64,000 nt of DNA from a virus. This document shows positions 5,505-59,777 of the stretch, piece by piece. The notes beneath the pieces were generated by a model. That model did no database searches, was not told where the DNA came from, and was given only the letters and a program-made list of their open reading frames with translations. Both the position numbers and the translations under genes were made by a program. How positions within the stretch are numbered: position 1 is the stretch's first letter; every line of letters starts with the position of its first letter. Location: positions 1 to 64,000 of the IMG/VR virus record IMGVR_UViG_3300042991_000131; one strand, written 5' to 3'.

Positions 5505-7148
5505 ATGTCGATCCTAGGCAACCTGCTACGTGATCGCGTAGCGGCTGGCCTAAGCAGAAAAAGTATCCAGTCCTGCTCTGCTTGGGCATTAAAATATCGG
5601 GTGATGGGTAAGCCTTATCCGGGTCCATGGTCTTTTGAGAATCATCCCTGGTTAAAGGACATGCACGACTGCCGCGATGAGCTAATTGTCGGGCAGAAGT
5701 CAGCACAGATGGGCTACACAGAGGTAGCACTTAATCGTAGCTTCTACACGATTGACGTACTCGGCGAGTCAGTCCTGTATATCTTACCAGCGTCAACCCC
5801 TGACGCAACAGACTTTTCCACGAGCCGCTTCGACCCGGCGCTAGAACTATCAGAACATCTAGCTAATCTCTTTAGTGACGTTAAGAACATAGGCCATAAG
5901 CGCGCTGGGTCAGCTAATTTATTTATCCGCGGTTCACGGTCCAGGAGCCAATTAAAGAGCTTACCAGTCAGCACAATCATCGAGGACGAAGTCGATGAAA
6001 TGGTGCAGGAAAATATCGCACTTGCTGCTGAACGTACATCTGGTCAGTTAACTAAATCAATATATAAAATCTCCACCCCGACAATAGATAACTACGGTAT
6101 CAATGCAGATTTCCGCAATTCGTCCCAGGATCACTACTGGTTCCAGTGTCCGCACTGTAACCGGCTAGTCGAGCTAACGTTTCCAGCCTGTTTGGTAATC
6201 ACAGCTGAGGATTGGACAGACGATAGTATTTATAAGAGTCACGTCATATGCCCAGCGTGTAAGCATGAGCTAGAGCACGCGGCGAAAAGAAGCATCCTTA
6301 AGTCTGGCAGGTGGGTGCCAACCTACTTGAACAAGACTGCAAGAGGCTTTCACATTAATCAATTATACTCTCCGACAGTTCGACCGTTTGACATTGCCAT
6401 AGCCTGGCTAAAAGCTCAAACGAATCCCTCTGACGAGCAAGAGTTCTATAACTCAAAGCTGGGTTTGACCCATGCTGTTGAGGGCGCGAAGATTACTGAT
6501 GCTCAGATAGCTAAGCTAATCGCTGGTTACAAGAAGCAAGTCAAAGGTCGTCCAGGCACAATAGTTACGATGGGCGTAGACGTAGGTAAATGGCTGCATG
6601 TGGAGATTACCGAGTACATAATCACTGGCAACGGTCCAGACGTCAATACACTCTCCCATGCTAGAGTCATCCATCAGGTCAAGGTACTCAATTTTGAGGA
6701 CCTAGACAGTCTGATGGTCGAGTACGGTGTGAACTTCTGCTGCATAGACGCGAACCCAGAACGGCGCAAGGCCATGGAGTTCGCGCAAAGGCAATGGGGT
6801 AGAGTAAAATTAGTGTTCTACGGTGTCGGCATAAATAGTAAAGTAATCTCTGTACACTCCGATGAAGAGCATACGATTACTGTTGACAGAACAAGCTGGC
6901 TGGATCTATCGCTGGGACGGTTCAGGAATGAAAAGATAGCTCTACCGGCTGATACAGATATCGAATATAAGCAGCAACTCAAGGCTCTGGTGCGCATCTA
7001 CGCCAAGGACCAACAGGGTAATCCTGTTGGTAAATACGTTTGTGGTAACGAAGATGATCACTATGCGCATGCTCGCAACTACAATGAGATAGCTTTCGCG
7101 ATGGCAGCTGGAAATGTCGGTCACTCAGATATACGATCACCAGTATAG
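5505..7148 (+). CDS. terL: terminase large subunit, lambda gpA-like
   Basis: KSAQMGYT deviant Walker A, IIEDEVDE Walker B, ISTPT, CPHC/CPAC zinc pair, GVDVG nuclease motif, DDHY. Confidence 0.92.
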   Translation: MSILGNLLRDRVAAGLSRKSIQSCSAWALKYRVMGKPYPGPWSFENHPWLKDMHDCRDELIVGQKSAQMGYTEVALNRSFYTIDVLGESVLYILPASTPDATDFSTSRFDPALELSEHLANLFSDVKNIGHKRAGSANLFIRGSRSRSQLKSLPVSTIIEDEVDEMVQENIALAAERTSGQLTKSIYKISTPTIDNYGINADFRNSSQDHYWFQCPHCNRLVELTFPACLVITAEDWTDDSIYKSHVICPACKHELEHAAKRSILKSGRWVPTYLNKTARGFHINQLYSPTVRPFDIAIAWLKAQTNPSDEQEFYNSKLGLTHAVEGAKITDAQIAKLIAGYKKQVKGRPGTIVTMGVDVGKWLHVEITEYIITGNGPDVNTLSHARVIHQVKVLNFEDLDSLMVEYGVNFCCIDANPERRKAMEFAQRQWGRVKLVFYGVGINSKVISVHSDEEHTITVDRTSWLDLSLGRFRNEKIALPADTDIEYKQQLKALVRIYAKDQQGNPVGKYVCGNEDDHYAHARNYNEIAFAMAAGNVGHSDIRSPV

Positions 7149-7156: not shown

Positions 7157-8872
7157 ATGACCATACCTTCACATCCCGATTATGTCACAGATAGCATCAA
7201 TTGGGAGAAGTACCGTCTTTCGTACGAGGGCGGTCGTGATTTCGTCGAAAAGTACCTCAAGCAGTACACAAGCAGAGAGGACAGTGCTGATTTCACTCTC
7301 CGCAAATCGATAACCTACTGCCCGGCGCATGCAAAAGCTGCGATTATGGAGATTAAAAACTCCATTTTTGAGCGAATGAGCGACGTTTTACGCATTGGTG
7401 GGCCGCAATCGTACCAAGAAGCAATTAACGGCGTCGAAGGTGGTGTCGATTTCACTGGTCGGAACATGACCAGCTTCGTTGGCGCTGAGGTATTGCCTGA
7501 ACTCCTCGTCATGCGCCGTGTTGGCGTATTCGTGGACAAGGCACCAGTGAAAGAAGTGCGTACCAAAGCCGAAGATAAGGGCATCCGGCCATATCTCTAT
7601 GTGTATAAGGCCGAAGATATCCTGTCTTGGGCTTATAACAGCAAGAATGAACTAGTCTCCGTGCTGCTCCGCAGTAACGAGACGGTGATCGACCCGATTA
7701 CTGGTCTCGCTACAGGTGTCGAAGAGAAACTGCGGCTGCTGAGGCTCGTTGACGGCGTGGTCACCGTGACGATGATGGACAAGGACGGTAAGTTGGGCGA
7801 GGCAACGGTCTTAAAGCTCAAGCAGATACCGTTTGTGATGTTTGAAATGACCGAGAGCCTGATGTGCGATATCGCTGATTACCAGATTGCACTGCTGAAC
7901 CTGGAATCATCCGACCTAGCTTACTTGCTGAAGTCGAACTTCCCATTCTATACAGAACAGACGAACCAGCTCTCTGACATGGCTAATCTTGCCCGTCAGG
8001 GCCAGGTGACGCTTGATGCCGATGGTAAGCCGATTGTAGCAGTGGCTGACGGCGCACAATCCGTCAGCATCGGTGCTACAACTGGTCGTCGTTACCCGAA
8101 GGGTACTGAGCGGCCCGGCTTCATTCATCCGTCTCCTGAGCCGATGGAAGTGTCCATGGCTAAGCAGACAGATATGAAGTCCGCTATCAGGCAGCTAGTG
8201 CAATTAGCACTCAGCAACTTGGCGCCCCAGCGCGCCAGTGGTGAGTCTAAGCAGATGGACCAGCAGGGTCTAGAGGCTGGTCTAGCTTATATCGGCCTCG
8301 TCCTTGAGACGGGTGAGAACAAGATCGCCAAGATTTGGGCTGAGTATGAAGGTGAGGATCCTGCACTAGTCGCTTATCCCGACCAGTACAGCTTACTCTC
8401 GGATGCAGACAGGCTGACGCTGGCTAAGGAACTAGCTACGCATCTGCCGAAGGTGCCTAGCTTGACGGCTCAGAAGGCTATCGCTAAGAAGATAGCCTTC
8501 TTAATCATTGGCCGTGGTATCACGCTGAAGCAGGAACAAGACATAATCAAAGAGATTGATGATGCCGAAATCATCGCTATCGACCCGGAAGTGCTGCGGC
8601 TTGATATTGAGGCTGGCTTAGTTGGCCTCGAACTAGCTTCTAGTGCTCGCCTGTACCCGAAGGGTCAGGTTGCTATAGCTAAGAAGGAGCATATCGCTCG
8701 TCTTGCTGCGATTGCTATAGCGCAGGCTCCTGGCGGCGGTGCTGGTAGTGATGCTGCACGTGGCATCCCGACGGGTGCACAAGATAAGAGTGGCAAAGAG
8801 GAAAAGGACGATAGTCAAGATTCAGATAAGCAAGAGCTTGGTAAGGGTAAGGCAGTCAGAGGCAAAGAGTAG
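7157..8872 (+). CDS. portal protein
   Basis: 571 aa following TerL; HPDY...W..YR..YEGG start and ASGES motif typical of portals. Confidence 0.8.
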   Translation: MTIPSHPDYVTDSINWEKYRLSYEGGRDFVEKYLKQYTSREDSADFTLRKSITYCPAHAKAAIMEIKNSIFERMSDVLRIGGPQSYQEAINGVEGGVDFTGRNMTSFVGAEVLPELLVMRRVGVFVDKAPVKEVRTKAEDKGIRPYLYVYKAEDILSWAYNSKNELVSVLLRSNETVIDPITGLATGVEEKLRLLRLVDGVVTVTMMDKDGKLGEATVLKLKQIPFVMFEMTESLMCDIADYQIALLNLESSDLAYLLKSNFPFYTEQTNQLSDMANLARQGQVTLDADGKPIVAVADGAQSVSIGATTGRRYPKGTERPGFIHPSPEPMEVSMAKQTDMKSAIRQLVQLALSNLAPQRASGESKQMDQQGLEAGLAYIGLVLETGENKIAKIWAEYEGEDPALVAYPDQYSLLSDADRLTLAKELATHLPKVPSLTAQKAIAKKIAFLIIGRGITLKQEQDIIKEIDDAEIIAIDPEVLRLDIEAGLVGLELASSARLYPKGQVAIAKKEHIARLAAIAIAQAPGGGAGSDAARGIPTGAQDKSGKEEKDDSQDSDKQELGKGKAVRGKE

Positions 8873-8900: not shown

Positions 8901-11900
8901 ATGGCCACCATCACAGTCGATACATTCCTTGATGGTGGCGTGGCCCGTACGGCTGGTGAGGCCATGGCTATTGGTGCAGGTGCGAAGTTCACAATCAGAA
9001 CAGACACACGTGTGCATGCGAACGCGCCTGCGAGCTTCCTCGGTTCATTAGGCAGCCCAACCTTCACTGACATTGGTGGAGAGTTACTAATCGACGCAAC
9101 GGCTGTCCGCTGGCTAGCCTACGACACTGGATCTGGTAACGTTCCTGCTATAGGCACGACGATTACTCAGGGCGGTGTGACCGGCTACCTGCTTGGCGTC
9201 TGGTCTGCACTTAACGCTGCTCCGACTGCTGTTGGTGCAGCTATGCCAGCCAGTGGCTTTCTTAAGTTCCGTGAAGTAAGCGGCACCTATACTGCTGGAG
9301 CATTGATAGGCATAGGTGCCTCTGCTCTTGGTGCAGATGTGACCGGCTGGATTGAGTGTGCCTGGGACGCAGGCGCCAACTTTGTCGTTGGTCGTGTCGG
9401 TAAATTCACTTCCCGTGGTGGCTGGTTCTATCTAGCTGATACAAACGGCTCTATAGGTCAACAGATTCAGGTACCTAGCACAAGTGTGGCAACTAACAAC
9501 AATTGCCCTGGTGCATGGGTTGAGATATCGCCCGGATCATCCGAGTATGAGTTCTGGCCCGGATTAAAGAATGCTGCTAACGGCTGGACACGTACTGCTC
9601 TTGGCTTCGCCGAGGGCTTTACTGATCGCCGTGGTCGCTTCGTTTGGTCTGCTGCCAATGGACTCTTCCAATTCGGTGAGACAGCAACTCTAGCCGCGAC
9701 ATATGCTAGCGTGGCTGCACAAGCCAGCACATATGCTGGTATCGCCATCATAGGCACTTACACTTGGGATGCCGATGTAGTCACAGTGAATACAGCGGCC
9801 ACGGCACATCTTCTGGAAGATGGCCAGGTAATCGGCCTTGACTTCACATCAGGTTCTGGTGTGGATGCAGCTACATTCGTCGTTACAGTCATTGATGCTT
9901 ATAACTTCAGCTGCGCATATGCCGGCTCTGGCACTGGCGGCAACGTTACTGTACGCCCTGGTGTGACAGTAACGTTCACTAGTCACGGTCTTAATCAGGG
10001 TGAGTCAACCTATTGTGACTTCACTACTGGTACTGGTGTCGACGGCACTTACGAGGTCTATGCTATAACAGGTGCCAATACATATTTGATTAGTATGCCG
10101 CATACTGCGCCCATTACTTCCGGCGCTGTTTCTTGCTTGCATACATTGCAGATTACCTATACAGCACATGGCCACGCAATCGGCAATGAAGTCTACTGTG
10201 ACTTCACAACTGGTGGTGCGACTAATGGCCGGTATGTGATGAAGGCTGTTGCTGCCAATACGATTAACATCAACTATGCTCATAGCGTGGCTATTGGCGT
10301 TAGTAACGTTACGCTGCGTTGGACTATTGGACACGTGCCGCCCAGCGGCTGCAAGGTGCGCATACCGAACGTAATGTTCGCTGAGTGTGCAACTGGTGCT
10401 CGCGCATTGAATACTGTTCCAAATAGCACAACGACATCACGGCCTGAGTTCACGACCACAACTGCTGGCGCTATTGACCTGGAATATCTATACTGTTGGT
10501 CAGTGCGCGCTGCATTTGATCAGGCTTACTCAGTTCGTCTAATAAATTGTGCATTCGTTGATATCTTGCAAGTAACAGAATGTGCTACTGCACTTGACAT
10601 AGATGGTATTGGTGTAAGCCAATATAGTAACCAGGATGCACGTGCAGTCCAGTTGACAAGCTGTTTCGCTGGCGGTACTGTACGTAATGTAGTGTCGCAG
10701 CGTGCTACACTTGGCACGACAGACCATGCAATGGAGATTGCCAATTGTGCCGGACAAACGTTTGAAGATATTGATGCCGGTATAATCCTGTATGCACGTA
10801 GCTCTGGTATACCGCTAAATATTGTTACATGCCAGAACCTAGTCATTAGACGTCCGCGCGTATTCAATGGTAACGTACCAATACAGTCCAGTGTGAATAT
10901 TGTAATTGAAGACTTGGATTACAATGATCGTTTCATCGGACATACAACTGCTTCGACACCTTATACGGCATTCACTATTGGTGCTGGATGCGATAAGATA
11001 ACGCTCGATGGCCTGACGCTGGGTATGGGTGGCACAATTGATGACTGCCATCCATATAATGGATTAGTCTACACACTTGGTGCAACGAATATCAAGTTCC
11101 GTAATCTGGGTACGGCTGCTGCATACCTAAAGACTGGAGTGTGGGCTCCTAATTATGCTGCATGTGCCCGGGCCTTCTCAACTGGTGGCAACAATAATAC
11201 AATTAAGGTACAGCGCGTATTCTGTGGAAAGATGCGCTCTGGCTTAATAAGCACGATTAACAGCGATAAGAACATAACTTTCGAGCAGATTCTTGCTAAC
11301 AGTCCGTGGCTGCATTCTGCTAAGGCTGGCTTCGGATCAACATTAGCCAGCTTGAATACGCAACAACGTGGATGCTATGCTGGCGTTTGGTCTGCTACAG
11401 GTCAGACATCAGTCTATGGCACGCATTGGCATGATTTGTTCCTTGGTAAAGCATATGGTGGTCTATTGCTGACTATGAATGAGCCAACTGCTGAAACAGT
11501 CAGCTTATTCACCGTTAATGCGGGTATCTGTAAGTTCAACTCGGCCGGCGGCATCGAAATGCGTGCCATCGGTGCAAAAGCCACTTGGGAAATGCCGTAT
11601 TTCTCGAAGGGTCACACTGGTTTCGCCAATATCACACCTGTGATGATAGGTGGCGGTGCGATCGGTAACTTCCGCTTTAAGTATCAGATTAACACAGGTT
11701 CTGGTTGGTCAGCACTTAGTGGACAGTTAACTGCTGCACAGCTGCAAACTGCACTAGTGTCTGAGACAATCAGTCCTTCTGTTGGCTTCAAATTGCGTAT
11801 TGAAATAGAAACAGTAACTACTAATACTGCTGCCATAACTTTCTTGCGCATTCACACGACTACAACTATCGCTGCACAAAATGCCATTGATTATGTTCTG

Positions 11901-12161
11901 GATACGAATACGCTAGCCATCACTGGCCTGCAAGTCGGTTCAGATGTTGTAATCTATGAAGCTGGCACGACAACTATACTTGATAATGTTGATTCCAATG
12001 GTAGTTCCTCCTGGAATTATATCTTCAGTGGCGCTGATACAATTGATATCGGTATTTTCAAAGCCGGTTATATACCAGCATATATTCGTAATTATGCTTT
12101 GAGTGTGGCTGATGCTTCTGTCCCTGTGAGTCAAGTCCTAGATAGAAACTATCAGCCCTAA
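8901..12161 (+). CDS. large virion protein with three beta repeats and a probable beta-helix region
   Basis: 1086 aa, G/T/A-rich; three T.HG...G..V..DFT.G repeats; SD TAAGGA. Confidence 0.6.
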   Translation: MATITVDTFLDGGVARTAGEAMAIGAGAKFTIRTDTRVHANAPASFLGSLGSPTFTDIGGELLIDATAVRWLAYDTGSGNVPAIGTTITQGGVTGYLLGVWSALNAAPTAVGAAMPASGFLKFREVSGTYTAGALIGIGASALGADVTGWIECAWDAGANFVVGRVGKFTSRGGWFYLADTNGSIGQQIQVPSTSVATNNNCPGAWVEISPGSSEYEFWPGLKNAANGWTRTALGFAEGFTDRRGRFVWSAANGLFQFGETATLAATYASVAAQASTYAGIAIIGTYTWDADVVTVNTAATAHLLEDGQVIGLDFTSGSGVDAATFVVTVIDAYNFSCAYAGSGTGGNVTVRPGVTVTFTSHGLNQGESTYCDFTTGTGVDGTYEVYAITGANTYLISMPHTAPITSGAVSCLHTLQITYTAHGHAIGNEVYCDFTTGGATNGRYVMKAVAANTININYAHSVAIGVSNVTLRWTIGHVPPSGCKVRIPNVMFAECATGARALNTVPNSTTTSRPEFTTTTAGAIDLEYLYCWSVRAAFDQAYSVRLINCAFVDILQVTECATALDIDGIGVSQYSNQDARAVQLTSCFAGGTVRNVVSQRATLGTTDHAMEIANCAGQTFEDIDAGIILYARSSGIPLNIVTCQNLVIRRPRVFNGNVPIQSSVNIVIEDLDYNDRFIGHTTASTPYTAFTIGAGCDKITLDGLTLGMGGTIDDCHPYNGLVYTLGATNIKFRNLGTAAAYLKTGVWAPNYAACARAFSTGGNNNTIKVQRVFCGKMRSGLISTINSDKNITFEQILANSPWLHSAKAGFGSTLASLNTQQRGCYAGVWSATGQTSVYGTHWHDLFLGKAYGGLLLTMNEPTAETVSLFTVNAGICKFNSAGGIEMRAIGAKATWEMPYFSKGHTGFANITPVMIGGGAIGNFRFKYQINTGSGWSALSGQLTAAQLQTALVSETISPSVGFKLRIEIETVTTNTAAITFLRIHTTTTIAAQNAIDYVLDTNTLAITGLQVGSDVVIYEAGTTTILDNVDSNGSSSWNYIFSGADTIDIGIFKAGYIPAYIRNYALSVADASVPVSQVLDRNYQP

Positions 12162-12169
12162 GGAATGCA

Positions 12170-13519
12170 ATGGCCAAAATAACCAATAAAAGCCAACTCA
12201 ACGTCGGTACAGAACTGACGATTGACGAAGTGGCTCGCACATTCACACTAAATGTGGCCGGTAATCTAGTCGCCAAAGATGGCGTCAGTATACAGGCACT
12301 ATATTCCAAGTTTGTCGATCTCTGGACTAACATGAGTTATCAAGACAGCCCGTTCCCGATGTATGCCATCGACGTGCTGTCTGGCCAGTTCCAATTCGGT
12401 ACAGACGGAAGCACATTCAGCGGCTGGAAACCAGCTAATGACACTGTTCGCAATATGCTTCGTGATGGTGGCTGGTCAGAATATTCAGCTGCTGGTGTGC
12501 TTAATCGACAATATGCTGGTTTTAATGGTCTAGGCGGCATCAACACTGGTGCGCAGCCTTATTATCATCTTGATGCAGCTGATGCTCCTACGAATTTTCC
12601 ATTTGATGACCAGTTCAATGTCGGTGTGCAAGTCTTTGGTGATGCTGCCAATGGTAACTTCGACAAGCGCACCTTTGCCAAAACATTCGTGCGTGAGTAT
12701 GGCAAGAAGTATAAGGACTCGGTCCTAGCCGATACTGGTAAGACTGCTACTGGTGCCTTCAAGGTCGATTTCTTGATTAGTAATGAAGATGACCTTAAGA
12801 TCCAGGCTAATGACGCTGCCATGACTGGCGCGCCCTATAGCGGGATTACTGTTGAGTTCTTCGCTGTTGACCAGATGAAGACAATTGGTGGCGGTAGCTA
12901 CCCTTTCCGGATTATCATCGAGGGTAACAACGCTACACTTGAGCAGATTTACACAAAGGTCCAGTACCTGCTTCGTCAGGCCACTGATATTGACGCTGGC
13001 GCTGGTACAGTCACTGGTAAGACTGCTGCCGCTATGTTGGAGTTCGTTGGCGATACGCTTAACACTAAGACTGGCGTCTTCATCAACAATATTCAAGCAA
13101 ACGACATTAATCGCATAGTTCTGAAAGATCAGAACGGTGTCGATCGCACATATCCGTATGTGGCTGCTGGTACTCTGAGCTTTAATGCTTCGCTAATCGG
13201 TGCAGGTTCTAGCTATCGCCTGATGTTCACAGCGCCTCCTGGTGCTGGCAATGATTACGGCGAAGCTGGTGCTATCACTGTGAATGATGGTAGCGGTACG
13301 CCGATCACTGGTACGATTAGTGCAGCCTCGATAGGCTTCACCTTCGACTACGACGGTAACGTTCAAGGTGGCTTCACTGCTGGCACTGATCGTCCTGTCA
13401 CCTTGATCGGTATCCGCCCCGGTTACGGTAAGTTCGCTGTCGCAACCGGCACACTGTCCCGCTCAAAGGGCATAAGCCTCTCGCTTGTTGCTGAGCAGGA
13501 CCGCGCGTATGCGGCCTAA
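12170..13519 (+). CDS. putative virion structural protein
   Basis: In the structural operon, SD TAAGGA, beta-rich, biased codon usage. Confidence 0.55.
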   Translation: MAKITNKSQLNVGTELTIDEVARTFTLNVAGNLVAKDGVSIQALYSKFVDLWTNMSYQDSPFPMYAIDVLSGQFQFGTDGSTFSGWKPANDTVRNMLRDGGWSEYSAAGVLNRQYAGFNGLGGINTGAQPYYHLDAADAPTNFPFDDQFNVGVQVFGDAANGNFDKRTFAKTFVREYGKKYKDSVLADTGKTATGAFKVDFLISNEDDLKIQANDAAMTGAPYSGITVEFFAVDQMKTIGGGSYPFRIIIEGNNATLEQIYTKVQYLLRQATDIDAGAGTVTGKTAAAMLEFVGDTLNTKTGVFINNIQANDINRIVLKDQNGVDRTYPYVAAGTLSFNASLIGAGSSYRLMFTAPPGAGNDYGEAGAITVNDGSGTPITGTISAASIGFTFDYDGNVQGGFTAGTDRPVTLIGIRPGYGKFAVATGTLSRSKGISLSLVAEQDRAYAA

Positions 13520-13521
13520 TC

Positions 13522-14145
13522 ATGATAACATTCGACGGGCCGAACAAGATCATCGAGCTTGACGGTACGTTGCGAGTGTCAATTAGAGGCATCTACAGCC
13601 GCTGGGTTGATTGGATGGCTCAAAGTGACAATCTCAAATACCTTCCAGCTTTCTCAGTAATCGCTGACCCGCCTAAGATCCCCGTATATGCCACGCTAGA
13701 AAATGGCTGGCGTATACGTCCCTTAGGCCAAGCAACACCATACGTCTTAACACTGTTTGATGGCTTCTTAGCCACAGCAGAAGAGACGGATCCGCTACTT
13801 TTCGTGTCTAGTGGAGCTAATCCGCGTGTGGTACTTGAGTCACCAGTCATAGCCGTTGGCTTTGAAATGGGCGGCACATCACTAACGCCAGAAGATATCT
13901 GGACGCATGAACCCAGGACGCTGACTGGTGGAGGCGGCGCTGGACCTAGCGGTGTGATCCACGTAATTGGAGACACTATTATCGTCAGCGACGAAACTGC
14001 TGCAACGATTAGTGAACTCAGTGATAGCGAAATGACAGTACAGAGTCCTGATTACAGTGTTGCCTCTGATCCAGATGCTAACATTCAGTTACCTGATGAT
14101 TCCTCAACTGCCACAGTGGAGCCGGACTCCACGATAGGAACGTAA
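13522..14145 (+). CDS. putative virion protein with acidic C-terminal tail
   Basis: Operon context; IYSRWVDW echoes LYSKFVDLW of the upstream gene. Confidence 0.5.
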   Translation: MITFDGPNKIIELDGTLRVSIRGIYSRWVDWMAQSDNLKYLPAFSVIADPPKIPVYATLENGWRIRPLGQATPYVLTLFDGFLATAEETDPLLFVSSGANPRVVLESPVIAVGFEMGGTSLTPEDIWTHEPRTLTGGGGAGPSGVIHVIGDTIIVSDETAATISELSDSEMTVQSPDYSVASDPDANIQLPDDSSTATVEPDSTIGT

Positions 14146-14498
14146 TGCCTACCATCTACTCCGGTGACACTTGGCCGTTCACCGCAACACTCAAAGTTGG
14201 CGTCGTAATCTTTCCTGTAGCCGGTGCCACACCTGGCCCGGCAGATACAGTTACTGCTAAGTTCATTGATAGCAAGACGTCTGTGCCGATTACGAATGAT
14301 ATCACATGCTTGGAAGCCACTCCTGGCGCAGATTGGCTCAACGGCAAGGTTGCTATCGCGCCTTCTGACGTCGAAAGCATTAAGCTAGAGCCTTTCGTCG
14401 GTAAGCCTGTTCTGCTAGTTATCCAAGTGCAGCGTACTGGTTATGGCAAGAAAGAGTGGCAGACTTCCTACACAATTAAGAAGGGCTGGATAGCCTAA
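14145..14498 (+). CDS. small beta-sandwich virion protein (BppU N-terminal-like)
   Basis: IYSGDT start; TAATG coupling. Confidence 0.4.
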   Translation: MPTIYSGDTWPFTATLKVGVVIFPVAGATPGPADTVTAKFIDSKTSVPITNDITCLEATPGADWLNGKVAIAPSDVESIKLEPFVGKPVLLVIQVQRTGYGKKEWQTSYTIKKGWIA

Positions 14499-14941
14499 TG
14501 GCATATATCGACGCGTCAGGTGGCGATGCCTATATGGCTACACGCGTCGGTAGCGATGCGTGGGATGAGGCCGAGACAGCCGACAAGGATAAGGCACTTG
14601 GCCATGCTACTCGGATTATTGATAACCTGAACTATCTTGGTATGAAGGCTGTGGCCGATCAGGAGAATGCTTTCCCTCGCCATGGTCAGACTGATGTGCC
14701 TAGCGATGTGTTAAATGCTTGCTGTGAGATTGCTCTAGCGTTACTTGATGGTGTTAATCCGGAACTAGAACTTGAAAACCTGAGTCAAGTTGCCTCAGGG
14801 TATGCCAACGTCAAAACTACCTTCAATCGTGACTCGCTACCGGAACACATCCTGGCAGGTGTTCCATCTTCGACAGCTTGGCGCTATCTTAAGCCCTGGT
14901 TGCAAGATAATCGTAGCGTGAACATGATAAGGGTGTCCTAA
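14498..14941 (+). CDS. head-tail connector (DnaT-like family)
   Basis: AY...ADAY-like start, ALGHATRIID, Q..AFPR, VP.DV.NACCEIAL. Confidence 0.7.
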   Translation: MAYIDASGGDAYMATRVGSDAWDEAETADKDKALGHATRIIDNLNYLGMKAVADQENAFPRHGQTDVPSDVLNACCEIALALLDGVNPELELENLSQVASGYANVKTTFNRDSLPEHILAGVPSSTAWRYLKPWLQDNRSVNMIRVS

Positions 14942-14951: not shown

Positions 14952-15743
14952 ATGCGTCTCAATATCATTTCTACTCTACTGCTACTCGCCTATGAAGGTG
15001 AGGAAACGCCCGAAGCGAAGGCTGCTGCCGAAGCTGCCCGAAAGGCCGCCGAAGATGAAAAGAATGGTAAGAAGTTCTCTCAGGAAGATGTGAACAAGAT
15101 CGTTGCTGAAGAGAAGCGCAAGACACAGGCTGCACAGGCCAAGCTCGTCACTGAGCTTGAAGCCATGCGGAATAAGGCTAATCTCACCGCCAGCGAGCGC
15201 GAAGAGATTGAGCAGCGTCTTGAGAGCGTCAAGTCTGAGTTCATGACGAAGGAGGAACTTCTCAAGCAAGAGAAGGCCAAGAGCGAGAAGAAGCTCAAGG
15301 AAGAACTGGATACTAAGTCGAAGGAAGCCGAGAACTGGCGCGGCCGGTTCACTCAGTCCACTATCACGCGTTCGATTACTGATGCGGCCGTCGCTTCGGA
15401 TGCTTTCAGCCCGAAGCAGATTGTTGCTCAGTTAGCACCAAATACTCGCCTTGTCGATGTGCTTGGCGAGGACAACAAACCTACTGGTGAGTTCGTGGCA
15501 AAGGTGAAAATCACCGTGAAGGACAAGGACAGTAAAGACGTTACTCTCGACCTTCCGGTCGACGAGGCAGTGAAGAAGATGAGTGAGCAGGACGAGTTCG
15601 CTAATCTGTTCAAGGGTAAGGGCACCGGCGGTACTGGCGGTCAGAACCGTGGCGGTGGCAAGACCCCTGATTTAGTTACAGCGGCTCAGGGCGACCCTGC
15701 AACATATCGTCGTCTTCGCAAAGAAGGTAAGATCAGTCTCTAA
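14952..15743 (+). CDS. capsid scaffolding protein
   Basis: K/E-rich coiled coil, FSQEDVNKIV, LFK-G-rich C-terminus; immediately upstream of the capsid gene. Confidence 0.8.
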   Translation: MRLNIISTLLLLAYEGEETPEAKAAAEAARKAAEDEKNGKKFSQEDVNKIVAEEKRKTQAAQAKLVTELEAMRNKANLTASEREEIEQRLESVKSEFMTKEELLKQEKAKSEKKLKEELDTKSKEAENWRGRFTQSTITRSITDAAVASDAFSPKQIVAQLAPNTRLVDVLGEDNKPTGEFVAKVKITVKDKDSKDVTLDLPVDEAVKKMSEQDEFANLFKGKGTGGTGGQNRGGGKTPDLVTAAQGDPATYRRLRKEGKISL

Positions 15744-15795
15744 TCACCTGTGCCACGAAGCATAGCTTCTGTCACACTCCCAAGGAAATCTACAA

Positions 15796-17151
15796 GTGCG
15801 TACTCTCAATCTGATCCCCACAATCATCCTGCTGGCCTACGCGAACGACAATGATGCGTTCGTTCCCGAGGTCTGGGCGCAGGAATCCCTGATGATCCTA
15901 GAGAATAACATGGTTGCGACCAATCTGGTCCACCGTGACTTCTCGAATCAGATCGCTTCGTTTGGTGATGTGGTCAACACCCGCAAGCCCGGCACCTTCA
16001 CTGCTACACGCAAGGGTAACAATGATGATGTGACCGATCAGGATGCAAGCGCGACCAACGTGCCGGTGCCTCTCGATCAGCACCTGCACACCAGTTTCGT
16101 CATCAAGGATGGCGAGGAATCGAAGAGCATGAAGTCGCTGGTTGAGGAGTACCTCAAGCCGGCTGCTATCTCGCTCGCCGAGGCTGCCGACCAGATCGTT
16201 CTCGGTCAGGTCTACAAGTTCCTGGGCAACGCGGTCGGTAAGCTCGGCACAACGATCACCAAGGATGTGGTCATCGCTGCGCGTGAGAAGATGAACGCGA
16301 ACAAGGTTCCGCTCCAGGGCCGCAACTTCCTGATCAGCCCGAACATGGAAGGTGCCCTGCTTGGCATCGCTGATTTCGTCAACGCTGAGAAGGTTGGCGA
16401 TGATGGCACTGCTCTCCGCGAAGGTTCGGTCGGCCGCAAGTTCGGCTTCGATACCTACATGGCTCAGCAGGTTCCGTCGATCGTTGGTGCTGCTCAGTCT
16501 GCTAGCGTCACTACGACCTCGGGCTACGCCGCCGGTGTTAGCACTGTTGCTTGCACCACGACCACAACTGCTCTGACAGTTGGTACGTGGGTCACAATCG
16601 ACGGTCAGCCGTACCAGATCGCTGCCGGCACAACCGCGACCTCGTTGGTCCTGGCTAGCCCGCTGCGTCAGGCTATCCTGACTGCCTCTGTGGTTGTTCC
16701 GTACGCTGCCTCCCTGATCAATCAGGTCGGTGGCTACGTTGCTGGTTGGTACAAGGCGATGAACTACGACACAGTGACACCGATCAAGGTCGGTCAGCTG
16801 ATTTCGTCCGGTGCCGGTATCTACTCGGCCATCGGCGGCACGGATGCGACCAAGCTCGTGCTTGATCGCCCCCTGGCTGCGACTGCCGCCGATGATGCCG
16901 TCCTGGGTCGCGGCCCGAACGGTGAGTATGGCTTCGCGTTCCACCGGAATGCGCTGGCCTTCGTCACCCGCCCGCTTGCCCAGCCCCGCGCTGGCATGGG
17001 CGCTCTGTCGTCCGTCGCGTCGTACAATGGTCTCGGCCTGCGCGTGACCATGACCTACGACGGCAAGGCTCAGGGCACACGTGTGACCCTCGACATGCTG
17101 GCTGGTGTCAAGGAACTGGATCTGGCTCTCGGCTGCCCGGTCCTTGGCTAA
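15796..17151 (+). CDS. major capsid protein, P22 coat-like, with inserted domains
   Basis: PEVWAQESL, VHRDF, GDVVN, FHRNALAFVTRPL, GLGLRV, LDMLAGVK; strong codon bias; GTG after AAGGA. Confidence 0.88.
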   Translation: MRTLNLIPTIILLAYANDNDAFVPEVWAQESLMILENNMVATNLVHRDFSNQIASFGDVVNTRKPGTFTATRKGNNDDVTDQDASATNVPVPLDQHLHTSFVIKDGEESKSMKSLVEEYLKPAAISLAEAADQIVLGQVYKFLGNAVGKLGTTITKDVVIAAREKMNANKVPLQGRNFLISPNMEGALLGIADFVNAEKVGDDGTALREGSVGRKFGFDTYMAQQVPSIVGAAQSASVTTTSGYAAGVSTVACTTTTTALTVGTWVTIDGQPYQIAAGTTATSLVLASPLRQAILTASVVVPYAASLINQVGGYVAGWYKAMNYDTVTPIKVGQLISSGAGIYSAIGGTDATKLVLDRPLAATAADDAVLGRGPNGEYGFAFHRNALAFVTRPLAQPRAGMGALSSVASYNGLGLRVTMTYDGKAQGTRVTLDMLAGVKELDLALGCPVLG

Positions 17152-17208: not shown

Positions 17209-17601
17209 ATGAATATCATCACCGACATAACATCGGGATTAGTTGTTATAGCAGGTGCAGTAGTAGCAGAGGCCGCAACTGATCCAGTCACGCATTATGC
17301 CGGGCTGTTTGAGAAATTCGGCGTCATGGCCTGCTTACTGCTGTACTTTCTTGTTCGCGATTACTATCGTAACAAAGCTGATATGGCCGAGAAGATGGCC
17401 AACGCAGCCAAGCACGATGCCTTGGAAGATTTTATACGTATAGAGTTAATGAAGCAACTCACTGATAGCACTGGTGCTATACGCTCAAGTGAGAAAACTC
17501 ATAAGCGTCTCTTAGAAGCATTAGAACATAAGACGCCGTGTCTTGCTGATGCTGCTAAGAAAGCTTCTCAGGCTGCCAAGAAAGAGACTGATTCGCAATG
17601 A
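17209..17601 (+). CDS. membrane protein, possible BhlA-like holin
   Basis: Hydrophobic segments (FGVMACLLLYFLV) followed by a charged coiled tail. Confidence 0.45.
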   Translation: MNIITDITSGLVVIAGAVVAEAATDPVTHYAGLFEKFGVMACLLLYFLVRDYYRNKADMAEKMANAAKHDALEDFIRIELMKQLTDSTGAIRSSEKTHKRLLEALEHKTPCLADAAKKASQAAKKETDSQ

Positions 17602-37657: not shown

Positions 37658-38179
37658 CTATGTTCCTTCGTGAGCGTAGAGTGTGCGATTAACTATCTTT
37701 GACAGCTTCGGCCTTGATAGACCATACTTACTACATATCTCTTTGTTATTTATACCAGATCCATGCATCTTGCGAATGTTAACTATGTCCTCATCAGAAA
37801 ATCGTTGACGAGGATTGCCATCTTGAGACCATTTAATGCGTTGCGCCTTTGGAATATCGGTGAAGTTCGCGCTGTCATTACCTATCAGGATATTATCTGG
37901 AAGATTATTAAGCTTATTATTGTCCTTATGTCTGACGACAATCGCTTCAAGAAATATCTTATCTCCAAATTTCTGATAGGCTTGAAGCCTGTGCACAAAT
38001 ATATTAACCGATTTTGTCTCATACTGTATACAGAAAGTAAGATACTCGTTTCGTACACAACCATCCAGTATCTTGCCTACAGGATTAACTATCTTGCCAG
38101 TTGCACTAATCTTGTAGCCTTTCTTGGCTGCATAGATTAGTGCTCTATTAGCAAGTGTAGGAGTATCCAGAAACAACAC
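37658..38179 (-). CDS. HNH homing endonuclease with C-terminal HTH
   Basis: VHRLQA, VRHKDNNKLNN; AT-rich. Confidence 0.8.
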   Translation of the reverse strand: MLFLDTPTLANRALIYAAKKGYKISATGKIVNPVGKILDGCVRNEYLTFCIQYETKSVNIFVHRLQAYQKFGDKIFLEAIVVRHKDNNKLNNLPDNILIGNDSANFTDIPKAQRIKWSQDGNPRQRFSDEDIVNIRKMHGSGINNKEICSKYGLSRPKLSKIVNRTLYAHEGT

Positions 38180-49216: not shown

Positions 49217-50074
49217 ATGGCTCTTGCATCGACTGTATTAGAAATCCCGATTAGCGAAATATTGATTGACGAGGACTTCAACTGTCGTGGGCAGATTGCG
49301 CCTATTGACGTTGTTGATCTTGCCAAAGATATCGAACGTCAGGGATTAATTCAACCTGTCACAGTGATGGCGGTTGAAGGATTACCAGACGGTAAGAAGT
49401 ACAAGCTTCTTGCTGGTTTCCGGCGCTGCAAGGCTCATATTGTTCTGAAGAAGCCGACAATCTCAGCCGTCATACGTCTGGACAAGCTGACCGACGCTGA
49501 CGCTCGGGTGATTAACCTAGCTGAGAACCTGCATCGCAAAGACTTAAATGTTCTCCAGGAGGCCAAAGCGATTAGGCATTTGTTCATCTTCTTTGGAGAA
49601 GCTGAAGTTGCCAATCGTCTCGGTCAGTCTCGCGGCTGGGTCCAGATACGTGCCATGCTTCTCAAGCTGCCCGAAGTCGTGCAGAAGGAAGTTGAAGCTG
49701 GCATGATTAGCCACACGAACATTCGTGAGCTATATGCGATCCATCGCGCTGGCAACATGGACAATCTCTACGCTGCTGTCCGCAAGATTAAGGACGGTAA
49801 GCTCAAAGGCTTGAAGAAGGTGACAGTTAATCCTGCCATCATCGGCCAAGAGGCTACTGGTAAGTTATTAAGGAATAAGAAAGAAATGGAGGCCATGACA
49901 ATGTTCCTAGTCGATAGAAAGTGTAAGGGCCTGCATACTCGATTACTGGCATGGGCAGCTGGAAACGTATCGACAGAAAATATCGTTACTGATATTTCAG
50001 CTTGGGCCGATGATCAGGGCATCGAGTTCGTTCAACCTACAAAAGAAGAATTAGAGGCAATATGCGCGCGGTGA
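49217..50074 (+). CDS. ParB-family protein
   Basis: GLIQPVTV, LLAGFRR, NLAENLHRKDLN, HTH EVANRLGQSRGWV. Confidence 0.9.
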   Translation: MALASTVLEIPISEILIDEDFNCRGQIAPIDVVDLAKDIERQGLIQPVTVMAVEGLPDGKKYKLLAGFRRCKAHIVLKKPTISAVIRLDKLTDADARVINLAENLHRKDLNVLQEAKAIRHLFIFFGEAEVANRLGQSRGWVQIRAMLLKLPEVVQKEVEAGMISHTNIRELYAIHRAGNMDNLYAAVRKIKDGKLKGLKKVTVNPAIIGQEATGKLLRNKKEMEAMTMFLVDRKCKGLHTRLLAWAAGNVSTENIVTDISAWADDQGIEFVQPTKEELEAICAR

Positions 50075-51834
50075 CTCCTGAAGTGTTCTTAATTTCCAAG
50101 ACAAGTGATCTGGAGATTAACGAATACATGAAGTCGATTGGTAGTCCGGCCTGGCAACCTGATGATTCAGTTAGCGATAGCGAGAATCTGGTCGAAGCTG
50201 CTGGTCGCATGTGCTATCGGTCTTGGGAGCCTTATAACAGCGAAAAGAAGGACGCTACTAATCCTAACGTCACTCGTGTTCGCAAAGGCAACGCGGCCTA
50301 CATCGCTAATCTTCTTGAGACTGGTCATGGTTGCTACGACAAAGAAACAGAGGTTCTGACAAAAGATGGTTGGAAGTTCTGGGCTGATGTAACGATGACA
50401 GATGAGTTTGCCACTATTAATACTAAATCATATAAGATTAGCTATCAAAAACCTAGCCGTCTAGTGCGCTTCACGCACAAAGGACGCATGTATCAAGTGG
50501 ATAGCCCAGAAGTGGATCTACTTGTTACACCTAATCACAAGATGTTTGCGTGTGAGACAAGGACAAAGACTGGCCGCAAGAAAGAAAACTACGGGCTAAT
50601 CATGGCATGGCAGCTTGACTGCGATAGCCATGCATATATGAAGAACGCAGCTCCGGTGGCAAGTGATGATTTGCTTGAGAGTGATATTGCTTTTGGCAAG
50701 CTGTTAGGGTTCGCTATCGGAGACGGTCATTACAGTCAAGAGCGCCTAGAGTTTCATCTAAGGAAAGAGCGCAAGATTAGCTACCTTCGTAGCATTTGCG
50801 ACAGCGCCGGACTAAAATTAGAAGAAGATGGCGACAAGTTCTATGTGCGTTTCAGCACGGTATATGAGAAACAGTGCTTTGAGAATATGTACCAAGCTAA
50901 TGGTGAGAAGCAGATACCGATTAATATAACTGCTATGTGCTTTGAAGAACTCGAAGCTCTATATGACGGGCTAATCAATAGTGACGGCTGCACGACCGAC
51001 ACTGGCATCTGTTATGACACAGTTAGCGCTAAGTTAGCCGGTCAGTTTCAGCAACTATGTCTGCATCTTGGCAAATCAGCAAACATCTCGCAAGCCGATT
51101 GCTATAAGGATAGAACTACTTCCTTTGGGACCAAGCCGATTTATCGGTGTTATGTGATTGAGCGCAATAATCGGCCTATTGTCAATAAGGTGAAAGGTGC
51201 TAAGGGCAGAACAAACTGGATAGAAAACTGGGAAGGCGAAGTGTTCTGTGCTGAAGTCCCTAATCACACGTTGTATGTCAGACGTAACGGTAAGCCAGTT
51301 TGGTCTGGTAATTCAGTCCTAGAACATGCAAACATGACATTCGTCCTCAAGGACGTTAGCCGGGTCGTGACACATGAGCTTGTTCGTCATCGTGCCGGAT
51401 GCGCCTATTCTCAGGAGTCCTTACGTTACGTTCGTCTCACCGACATCAAAGCTTCGATTCCTGATTGTTTCGCAAAGAATCCCGAGGCGCTTGCACTGTT
51501 CACCAGTACGATTGAACATCTTGAGTTCGTACAAAGCCAGTTGGCTGAAATCTATAAGACTGACCTCGGTGGAACGGACTTCGCCCGCAAGAAGGAACTC
51601 ACATCCGCCTTTCGTCGTCTGGCACCAATTGGATTGGCCACAAGCATCACCTTCACAGCTAACATTCGTGCGCTACGTCATATAATCGAAATGCGTACCG
51701 CAATGGCTGCTGAGGCCGAGATTAGGCTCGTGTTCAAGCAGGTGGCTACCATCTGCAAGACCGAGCATCCGAATTTCTTCTCCGACATGACAATCGGCTC
51801 GGACGGCGTGTGCTCGTTCGAGCATTCGACCTGA
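50062..51834 (+). CDS. thyX: flavin-dependent thymidylate synthase with intein
   Basis: AGRMCY, GHG|SVLEH after splicing, HELVRHR..YSQESLRY, NIRALRH..EMR, AEAEIR. Confidence 0.92.
   Translation: MRAVTPEVFLISKTSDLEINEYMKSIGSPAWQPDDSVSDSENLVEAAGRMCYRSWEPYNSEKKDATNPNVTRVRKGNAAYIANLLETGHGCYDKETEVLTKDGWKFWADVTMTDEFATINTKSYKISYQKPSRLVRFTHKGRMYQVDSPEVDLLVTPNHKMFACETRTKTGRKKENYGLIMAWQLDCDSHAYMKNAAPVASDDLLESDIAFGKLLGFAIGDGHYSQERLEFHLRKERKISYLRSICDSAGLKLEEDGDKFYVRFSTVYEKQCFENMYQANGEKQIPINITAMCFEELEALYDGLINSDGCTTDTGICYDTVSAKLAGQFQQLCLHLGKSANISQADCYKDRTTSFGTKPIYRCYVIERNNRPIVNKVKGAKGRTNWIENWEGEVFCAEVPNHTLYVRRNGKPVWSGNSVLEHANMTFVLKDVSRVVTHELVRHRAGCAYSQESLRYVRLTDIKASIPDCFAKNPEALALFTSTIEHLEFVQSQLAEIYKTDLGGTDFARKKELTSAFRRLAPIGLATSITFTANIRALRHIIEMRTAMAAEAEIRLVFKQVATICKTEHPNFFSDMTIGSDGVCSFEHST
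50332..51312 (+). mobile_element. intein with LAGLIDADG-type endonuclease (327 aa)
   Basis: Starts CYDKETEVLT; VTPNH block B; LLGFAIGDG and GLINSDG; ends VWSGN followed by Ser. Confidence 0.92.
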
Positions 51835-53422: not shown

Positions 53423-54028
53423 GTGACCATGACAACGGAAACTATGCCTGCAAATCAAAATCGCGACCCTGGTGAGAAAACTCATCAGGGTAGTTTTGTG
53501 TATATTGAAAAGATTATTGAAGGTTTTCCACATTATGCTATTGCAAACAACGGTAATCTAATAAGTCTAACTAGGTACGTTAAAAATGGCAACGGATTAA
53601 AACTAGTTACAAGAAAAGTATTGGCAGGTAGCGTCGGTAAAGATGGTTACAAAATAGCTACAATAAGTAATGACACTGAATCGGTCACTGTTAGTCATCA
53701 CAAACTAGTTGCGGAATATTTCTTACCCACTAAGCCGACTGATTTGCATGTTCCGAATCATAAAGACGGCATCAAAGTAAATAACCACATTAATAATCTT
53801 GAATGGATGACACGGAAGGAGAATACAGAACATGCTATAGTGGTTTTAGGATGGAAACCAGTTGGTGTTAAAGGGTATGCTAATCCTTTGTGCAAACGTT
53901 CTCCGGAACTAATACTTGAAGTTAAAAGACTAAAGGCATTCGGTATAAAGCAAATAGAAATTGCTAAGACAACTAAATTAAGTCAAACTATTATCTCTAG
54001 GATATTAACCGGAGTATACGATGCCTAA
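53423..54028 (+). CDS. NUMOD4-like HNH homing endonuclease
   Basis: IEGFPHYAIANNG, NHKDGIKVNNHINNLEW; AT-rich. Confidence 0.85.
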   Translation: MTMTTETMPANQNRDPGEKTHQGSFVYIEKIIEGFPHYAIANNGNLISLTRYVKNGNGLKLVTRKVLAGSVGKDGYKIATISNDTESVTVSHHKLVAEYFLPTKPTDLHVPNHKDGIKVNNHINNLEWMTRKENTEHAIVVLGWKPVGVKGYANPLCKRSPELILEVKRLKAFGIKQIEIAKTTKLSQTIISRILTGVYDA

Positions 54029-57892: not shown

Positions 57893-58116
57893 AAATCAAG
57901 CTCCCCCGTAAGATTCTCGCCTCTAAGCTCTTGAAGCTTAAGATGGCTTGCATGACAGATCACGCCAATCTCATGTATCCTCATATGGATGCAGCCTACA
58001 TGCGCCAACGTGCTAAGGAAGAGATTATCAGCAATGGTGATTTAGCCATGGCTCAGCGTCTCTTAATCATGGCTGATGTGAAGGATGAACATGAATCCAA
58101 AAATAGCAAGAAGTAA
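57889..58116 (+). CDS. hypothetical protein
   Basis: ATGA coupling, AAGGA SD. Confidence 0.55.
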   Translation: MKIKLPRKILASKLLKLKMACMTDHANLMYPHMDAAYMRQRAKEEIISNGDLAMAQRLLIMADVKDEHESKNSKK

Positions 58117-58441
58117 GCGTGGTCCGGAACATATCATACAGGACGACATTATCTGTATGCTTAAAAATTATAACTGGTTCGTAAAAACATTAAGTAGCTC
58201 ACAGTTCCAGTCCGGCATGCCAGATTTATTTGCCTGCCATACACGTTATGGCATACGATTAATCGAAGTTAAATTACCGGGAATGGTAGGCAGCAAGTTC
58301 ACGTCTGCGCAGCTTGAGGACTTCCCGAAGCTAACTGCAAATGGCGCAGGTGTGTGGATACTCACAGCAGCCACAGAAGAAGAGTATAAGAAGTTATTTG
58401 AGAGATTTAACTGGTGGAAATATTTGGATATAATGAAATGA
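58085..58441 (+). CDS. VRR-NUC nuclease / Holliday junction resolvase
   Basis: E..IQ..I, GMPDL, IEVK, SAQ. Confidence 0.8.
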   Translation: MNMNPKIARSKRGPEHIIQDDIICMLKNYNWFVKTLSSSQFQSGMPDLFACHTRYGIRLIEVKLPGMVGSKFTSAQLEDFPKLTANGAGVWILTAATEEEYKKLFERFNWWKYLDIMK

Positions 58442-58965
58442 TCTGGAAGCAAATTCCCAGCCAGCCGACTATTGAAGCCAGTGAAGATGGTCAGATTAGA
58501 GACTTAGATACAAAAGTAACATTTATTACTTTTCTAGCTGGTGGGCACGACGGAAAAGGTTATAGAGCTTTCTGCTTATCAGGAAGTAGAGTAATGCTAT
58601 TTGTGCATAGATTAGTTTGTGAAGCCTTTCACGGCCCTAGTAGTCTTGACGCAGATCATGTCGATGAAAATAAAATGAATAATGCAGAATCAAATCTACA
58701 GTGGCTTACGCACGGCGCAAATAGCAGCAAAGCAAATAGACTACGTATACGCACAAGCCATGAAAAGATTAATCGAGGAAAAGCTCAGCGAGGCGAGAAT
58801 AATCCTATAGCGAGATTAACTGACGCAGATGTTATTGTTATTAAAAGGCAATTATTATTCGGTATAACGCACGCTGAAATAGCAAAAAGATTCAAAGTCG
58901 CCAAGTCTACAATAGGCAATATCAAACAAGGAAACAGCTGGAAATCTATAGGAGTAATGAAATGA
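58438..58965 (+). CDS. HNH homing endonuclease
   Basis: VHRLVCEAFHGP, DHVDENKMNN. Confidence 0.85.
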   Translation: MIWKQIPSQPTIEASEDGQIRDLDTKVTFITFLAGGHDGKGYRAFCLSGSRVMLFVHRLVCEAFHGPSSLDADHVDENKMNNAESNLQWLTHGANSSKANRLRIRTSHEKINRGKAQRGENNPIARLTDADVIVIKRQLLFGITHAEIAKRFKVAKSTIGNIKQGNSWKSIGVMK

Positions 58966-59144
58966 GCTACAGAGAACACAGTGTAGTACCTGCCTTTATA
59001 GCTATGCTAGTTATAGGATTCTTAATAGGTATACCTGTAGCTACCGCTGTTAACGATAACTACTGGAACAAGAAGCTAGTGAAAGAAGGCAAGTATTATT
59101 GGGTCGTAGACGAGAACGGCTACACGAATCTGGTTCCAAAATGA
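58962..59144 (+). CDS. small membrane protein
   Basis: One hydrophobic helix; ATGA coupling. Confidence 0.5.
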   Translation: MSYREHSVVPAFIAMLVIGFLIGIPVATAVNDNYWNKKLVKEGKYYWVVDENGYTNLVPK

Positions 59145-59311
59145 AGATTAAGTACGGAAACTATACGTACAAGATTAGCACGTATAAAGATATTGGTAGT
59201 GGTCTTGCAGAAGTTACTTTTGTCCGCAAACTAGCCAAGCGCACGATCATGGAGAAAACGATTGTGCGCGAGGCAGAAATAATGTTAGAAAGAAAGGCTA
59301 CGCCGCCATGA
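59141..59311 (+). CDS. hypothetical protein
   Basis: ATGA coupling at both ends. Confidence 0.5.
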   Translation: MKIKYGNYTYKISTYKDIGSGLAEVTFVRKLAKRTIMEKTIVREAEIMLERKATPP

Positions 59312-59775
59312 AACGATTAGGCATATTTGTTGACGTCAGTAATTTGTATTACTGCACTGAGAAGCAGTATCGGAAGAAGATTGATTATGCTAAGTATTTG
59401 GCCTTCTTGAACGATTTCGGAACAGCAAAATTCTCTATTGCCTATGCTGCTGTTATGGGTACACAAGCTGATGGCTTCCTGCATGCTCTAGCCGAGCTAG
59501 GTTTCCAGGTCAAGACCAGGACACCTAAGGAATATTCCATCCCTGGTGGCGGTGTTAAGCATAAGTGTGATTTCGATGTACAAATAGCATTGGATATGGT
59601 GCATATGCAATCACAAATGGATATGTGCATACTTGGTTCTGCTGACGGTGACTTGACACCAGCAGTCAAGTACCTGACGATACCAACGGTAATCTTTGCT
59701 TGCGGTATCAGTAACGAATTAGCCAAGTCGGCTAAGGCGGCCATCGAGATTCCACCTTCAATCCTTATAGGATAA
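59308..59775 (+). CDS. NYN domain (LabA/DUF88, PIN fold) ribonuclease-like protein
   Basis: IFVDVSNL, DVQIALDM, SADGDLTP, SNEL. Confidence 0.82.
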   Translation: MKRLGIFVDVSNLYYCTEKQYRKKIDYAKYLAFLNDFGTAKFSIAYAAVMGTQADGFLHALAELGFQVKTRTPKEYSIPGGGVKHKCDFDVQIALDMVHMQSQMDMCILGSADGDLTPAVKYLTIPTVIFACGISNELAKSAKAAIEIPPSILIG

Positions 59776-59777
59776 TC

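Follow-up and report, generated by a model that had tools for sequence, protein, structure and literature searches.

Leader common to scaffold and coat

The stretch of DNA analyzed here (the window, 64,000 nucleotides) is the first 64 kb of the IMG/VR viral contig IMGVR_UViG_3300042991_000131, which is 76.8 kb long and estimated to be 83% complete. Two unrelated head proteins encoded in it, the scaffolding protein and the major capsid (coat) protein, begin with one short N-terminal leader, and this leader is selected at the protein level and co-varies between the scaffold and the coat of each related phage. In the explanation put forward here, to which we give about an even chance, the leader on both proteins would serve recognition and would be cut after its final Tyr, the best candidate for the cut being the small cysteine peptidase-like protein encoded at 61836-62273.

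The scaffold is a protein of 263 amino acids (aa) encoded at 14952-15743 (+; phrog_206, E 4.8e-11), and the coat, of the P22/HK97 type, has 451 aa and is encoded at 15796-17151 (+; phrog_283, E 1.4e-63; PF11651, E 2.1e-27), its 96.4 bits against PF11651 lying above the gathering threshold of 24. The scaffold leader consists of 14 residues, MRLNIISTLLLLAY (14952-14993, +), with a predicted junction after Tyr14, and precedes an acidic, Ala-rich linker that opens with EGEE and continues as EGEETPEAK. The coat leader consists of 15 residues, MRTLNLIPTIILLAY (15796-15840, +), with a predicted junction between Tyr15 and Ala16, after which the coat opens with ANDN and continues as ANDNDAFVPEVWAQ. Both leaders end in LLAY, and the hydrophobic stretches within the window leaders are LNLIPTIILLAY and LNIISTLLLLAY. 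In a six-frame scan of the window, the motif at the leader end was found near the start of an open reading frame (ORF) in the scaffold and coat genes only. At most of the residues that the two leaders have in common, the codons are unlike.

The coat gene starts with GTG, which lends some color to the view that the similarity is an artefact, caused by a wrong start codon, by chance, or by recent DNA duplication or gene conversion. The starts themselves speak against it. The scaffold ATG is preceded by AAGGA 7 nucleotides (nt) upstream and the coat GTG by AAGGAA 8 nt upstream, the coat homologue P0002 (86% identical) has ATG at the position of the GTG, and the coat has no further in-frame start before Met33, from which the protein would be made without its invariant N-arm. 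True starts further downstream, for which the original prediction had left room, are disfavored by these points. The permutation test described below excludes chance and the synonymous sites are random, so an artefact is extremely improbable.

The matches of the coat to PF11651 and phrog_283 start at residue 16. In the AlphaFold model of the coat, with a mean predicted local distance difference test (pLDDT) score of 82, residues 1-20 form a detached helix of low confidence (pLDDT 46-53), and from residue 21 onward the N-arm and the body are modeled confidently (pLDDT 84-94). By this model, the leader is not part of the coat fold and is not predicted to pack on the coat.

Diversity of the leader in related phages

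The comparison covered about 200 related loci, taken from collections of viruses, genomes and metagenomes, and a database search returned 1984 coat homologues. No close cultured relative was found: there was no DNA match, and the coat identity in the phage collection was at most 34%. The original prediction had allowed that homologues might be without the motif; 116 of 120 coat homologues with 51-95% identity have an N-terminal extension, with a median of 13 residues (most have 9-17), and it ends right before the invariant A-N-D-x-D-A-F-[IV]-P-E-[VI]-W. The consensus of the leader end is [W/F]-x-x-[V/A]-[Y/F], followed by A, E or D. Among the 116 leaders, the residue before the junction (P1) is Y in 62, F in 41, G in 7, H in 4 and S in 2, so that an aromatic Y or F is used in 103; P2 is V in 59 and A in 39, P5 is W in 65 and F in 15, and the residue after the junction (P1') is A in 85, E in 12 and D in 8. 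Where P1 is Gly (seven leaders), the preceding residue is Y, F, H or A, never G.

Related scaffolds carry a leader that matches the one on their own coat, followed by an acidic linker rich in D, E, G, P and Ala. In L086, the leader ends with KFFKPVY on both proteins, followed by A in the coat and by E in the scaffold. In L080 (N[FY]VIANA..AF), it ends as NFVIANARPVAF in the coat and as NYVIANAKVAAF in the scaffold, each followed by D. The ends are TLYTIQQPLF (then A) in the coat and TLYTLQRPLF (then E) in the scaffold of L183, TVCY followed by D or E, respectively, in L022, RLWYG followed by N or E in L190, and NVH followed by L in the coat and TVH followed by D in the scaffold of L170. Coat and scaffold of L023 both have AR.VCF at the leader end.

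A minority of loci use Gly, His or Ser as the final leader residue, namely L188, L190, L191, L196 and L201 (W-[FY]-G or I-G), L170 (H) and L133 (S/H). The atypical P1 residue is usually common to the scaffold and the coat of one phage, being His on both in L170 and Gly on both in L188, L196, L201 and L190.

The hydrophobic character of the window leaders would suit a role as signal peptide or membrane anchor, by which head assembly would be attached to the cytoplasmic membrane, an option raised in the original prediction. It is very improbable. Twelve hydrophobic residues are too few for spanning a membrane, there is no AxA signal-peptidase motif, and leaderless relatives assemble without any leader. 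Furthermore, the length of homologous leaders goes down to 8 residues, and many are charged or polar, such as MKQFHVVY, MNTSRKFFAPVY and RSRSWYG. The membrane anchor was dropped because of this diversity.

Co-variation and codon use

For 55 non-redundant phages, the last 8 residues of the coat leader were compared with the first 110 residues of scaffolds by the best ungapped BLOSUM62 score. The mean score was 17.7 for the phage's own scaffold vs. 8.7 for the leaders of other phages, and 0 of 10,000 permutations reached the observed mean. The own pair ranked first in 16 of the 55 phages, a set that contains several 5'-truncated scaffolds, which lower the match result; the window pair scored 27 and took rank 2. 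The earlier claim that two unrelated head proteins have a leader in common agrees with this test as well as with the starts, the ribosome-binding sites and the six-frame scan.

Codon use points to the level at which the likeness is kept. At 174 positions where both leaders of a phage have the same residue, the codons are identical in 79 cases vs. 74.8 expected from codon usage. The choice among synonymous codons is thus random, which argues that the match is held by selection on the protein and not by recent gene conversion; the latter was discarded on this ground. The codon test bears out the earlier statement that the similarity is maintained at the protein level with differing codons.

Leaderless relatives

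Some relatives have no leader, and their proteins show where it was added. Among close family members, the coat begins M-ANDLDAF and the scaffold M-ADENVD in L096, and in L112/L225 the coat begins M-ALPPNTVDAF and the scaffold probably M-PDEDPP. The coats of L024, L035, L036, L038 and L040 start with M-ANT and their scaffolds are without a leader, and the coat of P0052 is leaderless and starts at P1'. In distant relatives (Clostridia, Alphaproteobacteria and other bins), the coat begins M-A-N-T, aligned to A16-N17-D18 of the window coat, and the scaffolds are leaderless. The cultured Vibrio phage SSP002 and Streptomyces phage Hiyaa likewise have coats that start at P1' and scaffolds without a leader. 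Judged from these starts, the leader is an add-on placed exactly before the ancestral start and jointly absent from the two proteins. The mature coat start ANDNDAF that had been predicted earlier is exactly the natural start of the leaderless relatives.

Removal of the leader is likely because the junction is sharp and conserved, the placement is exact and leaderless relatives exist. Under our proposal, residues 1-14 of the scaffold and 1-15 of the coat would form a modular leader needed for recognition by one common partner in head assembly. Cleavage after the last Tyr, between Y14 and E15 of the scaffold and between Y15 and A16 of the coat, would leave a coat beginning like those of the leaderless relatives, and the cutting enzyme would be the C39-like papain-fold peptidase of the phage.

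Co-variation and joint absence would also fit any common partner or a contact between leaders. It is therefore possible, if rather unlikely, that the leader is an assembly tag, kept or only incidentally removed, which docks on both proteins to one phage- or host-specific partner (such as a chaperone, the portal or the coat), or each leader to the other, and so coordinates folding and co-assembly; in that case, the C39-like protein would have another function, such as an early-gene or counter-defence role. A tag of this kind is harder to square with a sharply defined junction that has a conserved P1/P1' pair, with leaderless relatives that start exactly at P1', or with a leader that is not predicted to pack on the coat.

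A candidate leader peptidase

The proposed enzyme is a small stand-alone papain-fold cysteine peptidase-like protein of 145 aa (61836-62273, +), chosen as the candidate leader peptidase from its AlphaFold model (pLDDT 95.4) and from an alignment in which Cys3, His110 and Asp121 are the sole residues common to all 19 homologues. Comparison of the model by VIA-align, which is independent of Foldseek, placed six C39 leader-peptidase domains at the top with Z 9.4-10.2: PCAT1 (Z 10.2; root-mean-square deviation (rmsd) 2.4 over 110 residues), LahT150 (10.0), the PCAT1 peptidase domain (9.9), 3b79 (9.7), ComA (9.6) and 3zua (9.4). The rmsd of the PCAT1, LahT150 and ComA matches was 2.3-2.6 over 107-110 residues. 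Staphopain, PeiR and Josephin came next with Z 9.0-9.4. Foldseek matches were weak and all papain-like, and Peptidase_C39 was the nearest among the named clusters of the ESM atlas. Most relatives have a Gln 5-7 residues before the catalytic Cys (Q-x4-6-C), which would belong to the oxyanion hole. The family comprises 1,855 clusters at 50% identity, and the homologues are stand-alone ORFs of 137-170 aa that are not fused to an ATP-binding cassette (ABC) exporter and neighbor NYN and VRR-NUC genes.

Word-level homologues of the peptidase are few; profile searches find homologues in 17 of 20 related viral contigs, and the three contigs without one are only 34-62% complete. All seven complete genomes, as judged by terminal repeats or a CheckV completeness of 100%, encode it, and the presence of a conserved peptidase of a leader-trimming fold in every complete genome is a further argument against a mere assembly tag. 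In a Pirellulales genome of 9.3 Mb, the single copy lies in a prophage region, about 45 kb from a leader-bearing coat on the same contig. The peptidase is absent from the leaderless SSP002, Hiyaa, G031 (100% complete) and G032. These features make the protein at 61836-62273 the best, though circumstantial, candidate for the cutting.

Several points weigh against the cleavage explanation, and some of them favor the assembly tag. The proposal draws on genes and models. Among Pfam families (PF03412 and PF13529 included), none matched any of the 19 peptidase homologues at E up to 1, and no PDB sequence matched the peptidase at E up to 10. Papain folds also cover cell-wall amidases and deubiquitinase-like enzymes, and the resemblance of the model to a Josephin-type deubiquitinase (Z 9.0) suits a tag with an unrelated peptidase. 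The upstream Gln is missing from the window peptidase and its three nearest homologues, which start with MNC or MKNTNC. The gene stands outside the head module. In relatives, 25-45 kb separate it from the coat gene, and it belongs to a conserved, early-looking block of VRR-NUC, NYN, the peptidase and then a gene of about 215 aa (loci L208-L224); a place among early-type genes again favors the tag. G028, which alone among the close leaderless relatives is on a long contig, is also without the whole NYN/peptidase region, and is thus uninformative as a negative control, presence and absence being confounded with lineage.

The distances between genes were compared by Mantel tests as well. In the first test (18 genomes), the leader distance correlated with the peptidase distance (r 0.53, p 0.0002) and not with that of the coat body (r 0.05), and the partial correlation given the coat body was 0.54. 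In a control test, r was 0.59 for leader vs. peptidase and 0.66 for leader vs. the neighboring NYN gene, and the partial correlation of leader and peptidase given NYN was weak (r 0.22, p 0.09). Since NYN correlates equally well, the signal reflects the general relatedness of fast-evolving genes rather than specific co-evolution of leader and peptidase. The Mantel result was dropped as evidence after this control, and the lack of specific co-evolution is what an assembly tag would give. In phage 80alpha, moreover, the scaffold leader is essential for assembly and its cleavage dispensable (PMC5744158), and cleavage may be dispensable here too, which counts for the tag as well.

The window copy of the early block (58085-62273, +) is split by HNH genes at 58414-58965 and 60170-60631 and by a transglycosylase-like gene at 60837-61523. 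A role of the peptidase in a lysis cassette was considered and rejected, as the transglycosylase-like neighbor is found only in the window and its closest relative, the neighbors elsewhere being NYN and VRR-NUC. Two peptidase candidates had been named originally. The one at 61836-62273 held up, with its conserved Cys-His-Asp, its papain fold and C39 as its closest likeness. The other, given as 61513-61839, corresponds to a small protein of 120 aa (61477-61839, +; phrog_1365 only) with a zinc-peptidase-like HELAH motif (HExxH); it was rejected as leader peptidase, having no homologue in 18 of 18 related contigs and not standing beside the peptidase elsewhere. Its gene overlaps both neighbors, the transglycosylase-like gene on the 5' side and that of the cysteine peptidase on the 3' side.

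Searches for host and phage proteases

In Staphylococcus phage 80alpha, the leaders of the capsid protein gp47 and the scaffold gp46 copy the extension of ribosomal protein L27 and are cut between Phe and Ala by the host cysteine protease Prp (PMC5744158), which also trims L27 itself (PMC5744158, citing Wall et al., 2015). By this precedent, a host protease might remove the leader here, the differences among phages mirroring different hosts. We consider this unlikely. The format is Prp-like, with a short leader whose final aromatic residue stands before Ala or an acidic one, and the head module is without a protease gene. Against it stands the search for Prp (PF04327), which matched neither the 76.8-kb phage record nor any of five candidate host genomes (Pirellulales, Aureliella, Opitutales, Saccharibacteria and Rhodoferax bins), while control genomes matched; the candidate hosts are genomes that hold related phage loci and may not be the host of the window phage. 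L27 was found in four of the five genomes and is without an extension, starting with MAHKKG or, in the Saccharibacteria bin, with MASTKA. Leaders are diverse even where coats are similar (the coats of G011 and G013 are 63% identical and their leaders unrelated), which is hard to reconcile with one conserved host enzyme. Host calls for most contigs, furthermore, come from metagenome binning only.

By these searches, Prp plays no part here. Of the analogy with 80alpha drawn in the original prediction, the format survives, namely a short tag whose junction lies between an aromatic residue and Ala or an acidic one; cleavage by host Prp and mimicry of L27 do not, and were rejected on the searches of the phage record and the candidate host genomes.

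Some related contigs are binned with very different organisms, L020 with the archaeal Methanomassiliicoccales, L019 with Saccharibacteria and L018 with Rhodoferax, which are probably binning errors. With bins so discordant, hosts of these phages should be assigned from integrated copies; one such copy, L023, lies at the end of a 698-kb Pirellulales contig and offers the best indication of a host for the family.

The earlier observation that no prohead protease gene is evident was upheld. The S78, ClpP and Prp families had no match in the whole 76.8-kb record, and no protease family matched any of about 65 ORFs taken as genes among the ORFs of at least 90 aa. No classical prohead protease was found between portal and coat in the window or its relatives, the S77/S49 models not having been run separately on the record. 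Besides the one at 61836-62273, no protease-like gene is conserved.

Comparison with known systems

Scaffold and coat leaders in common were previously known from one system only, the staphylococcal phages that use host Prp, and our literature search found no description of a system like the present one, the 80alpha work being all that it returned. Like 80alpha, the window phage has two unrelated head proteins with one short N-terminal leader (13-14 residues in 80alpha and 14-15 here), a junction with an aromatic residue on one side and Ala or an acidic residue on the other (F then A in 80alpha, Y then A or E here), a separate scaffold and no classical prohead protease. Unlike that of 80alpha, its leader bears no likeness to L27, and Prp was found neither in the phage nor in the candidate hosts. 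Nor does the leader copy a host protein; it differs widely among related phages while being matched within each. As candidate enzyme, there is a phage-encoded protein with a papain/C39 fold instead of the Prp fold, and cleavage here is a prediction. The analogy thus holds in format and not in mechanism.

The C39 domains of bacteriocin and peptide exporters, such as PCAT1, LahT150 and ComA, remove double-glycine leaders. They provide the best structural matches for the candidate and resemble it in their small papain fold and Cys-His-Asp triad, and they cut an N-terminal leader of 15-30 residues off several substrates that have it in common. The window protein differs in having no sequence-level Pfam or PDB match and no upstream Gln, and in being stand-alone and cytoplasmic rather than fused to an ABC transporter. 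The putative substrates also differ, ending in [V/A]-[Y/F] here and in Gly-Gly (or Gly-Ala/Ser) in C39 systems.

Proteolytic head maturation is a classic theme in phages. In phage T4, internal proteins carry a capsid-targeting sequence that is removed after assembly by the prohead protease gp21. The short N-terminal tag on several head-associated proteins is similar, whereas the T4 enzyme, a serine prohead protease of the type of herpesvirus assemblin, has its gene in the head module and reads an L/I-x-E motif, and the tag described here is on scaffold and coat only. With P22, the window phage has in common a PF11651 coat, a separate scaffold whose coat-binding C-terminus is basic, and a head module without a protease. 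To our knowledge, the coat and scaffold of P22 have no leader and undergo no processing; here the leader is added before the P22-type N-arm.

The logic seen in 80alpha recurs in a large environmental phage family with well over a thousand coat clusters. Its leaders follow a consensus of their own and are modeled on no host protein, and the probable enzyme is a phage product of the type that trims bacteriocin leaders. As a broader proposal, held with less than even confidence, a very large uncultured clade, some of it on Planctomycetota, may mature P22-type heads with a private phage-encoded C39/papain leader peptidase that reads a fast-evolving leader on scaffold as well as coat. If so, the enzyme would be a third, undescribed class of head-maturation protease beside the assemblin/ClpP type and host Prp, with a specificity that is orthogonal between related phages. 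Such phages would supply natural matched pairs of leader and peptidase, useful as orthogonal tags, and the open question from 80alpha on the purpose of these leaders would become testable in a second, independent system.

Head module and other genes

The head module of the window runs in the order terminase, portal, four extra genes, Ad1, scaffold and coat. The terminase is encoded at 5505-7148 and the portal protein, taken as the start of the module, at 7157-8872 (+; phrog_145, E 1.9e-36). The head-tail adaptor Ad1 (14498-14941, +; phrog_477, E 9.3e-17) lies immediately 5' of the scaffold gene. The middle of the scaffold is a coiled coil, and its basic C-terminal segment (YRRLRKEGK) is conserved, with a P..YR..RK motif that is kept in relatives. 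The gene order in related loci is portal, Ad1, scaffold and coat, and no protease gene was found among them.

The four genes between portal and Ad1 (8901-14498, +) encode proteins of 1086, 449, 207 and 117 aa without a Pfam or PHROG match. Since portal and Ad1 are adjacent in relatives, this region looks like an inserted block, and its products are perhaps fibre- or spike-like proteins in an unusual location. Right after the coat gene, a protein of 130 aa is encoded at 17209-17601 (+), with hydrophobic N-terminal segments and a charged helical tail; it matched no family. L005 has a comparable short ORF of membrane-like character between its Ad1 and scaffold genes. The gene for the thymidylate synthase ThyX (50062-51834, +) contains a LAGLIDADG domain, probably as an intein or through insertion of a homing endonuclease. 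HNH_3 endonucleases are encoded at four scattered sites of the window, two of them at 37658-38179 and 53423-54028 and the other two being those that split the early block.

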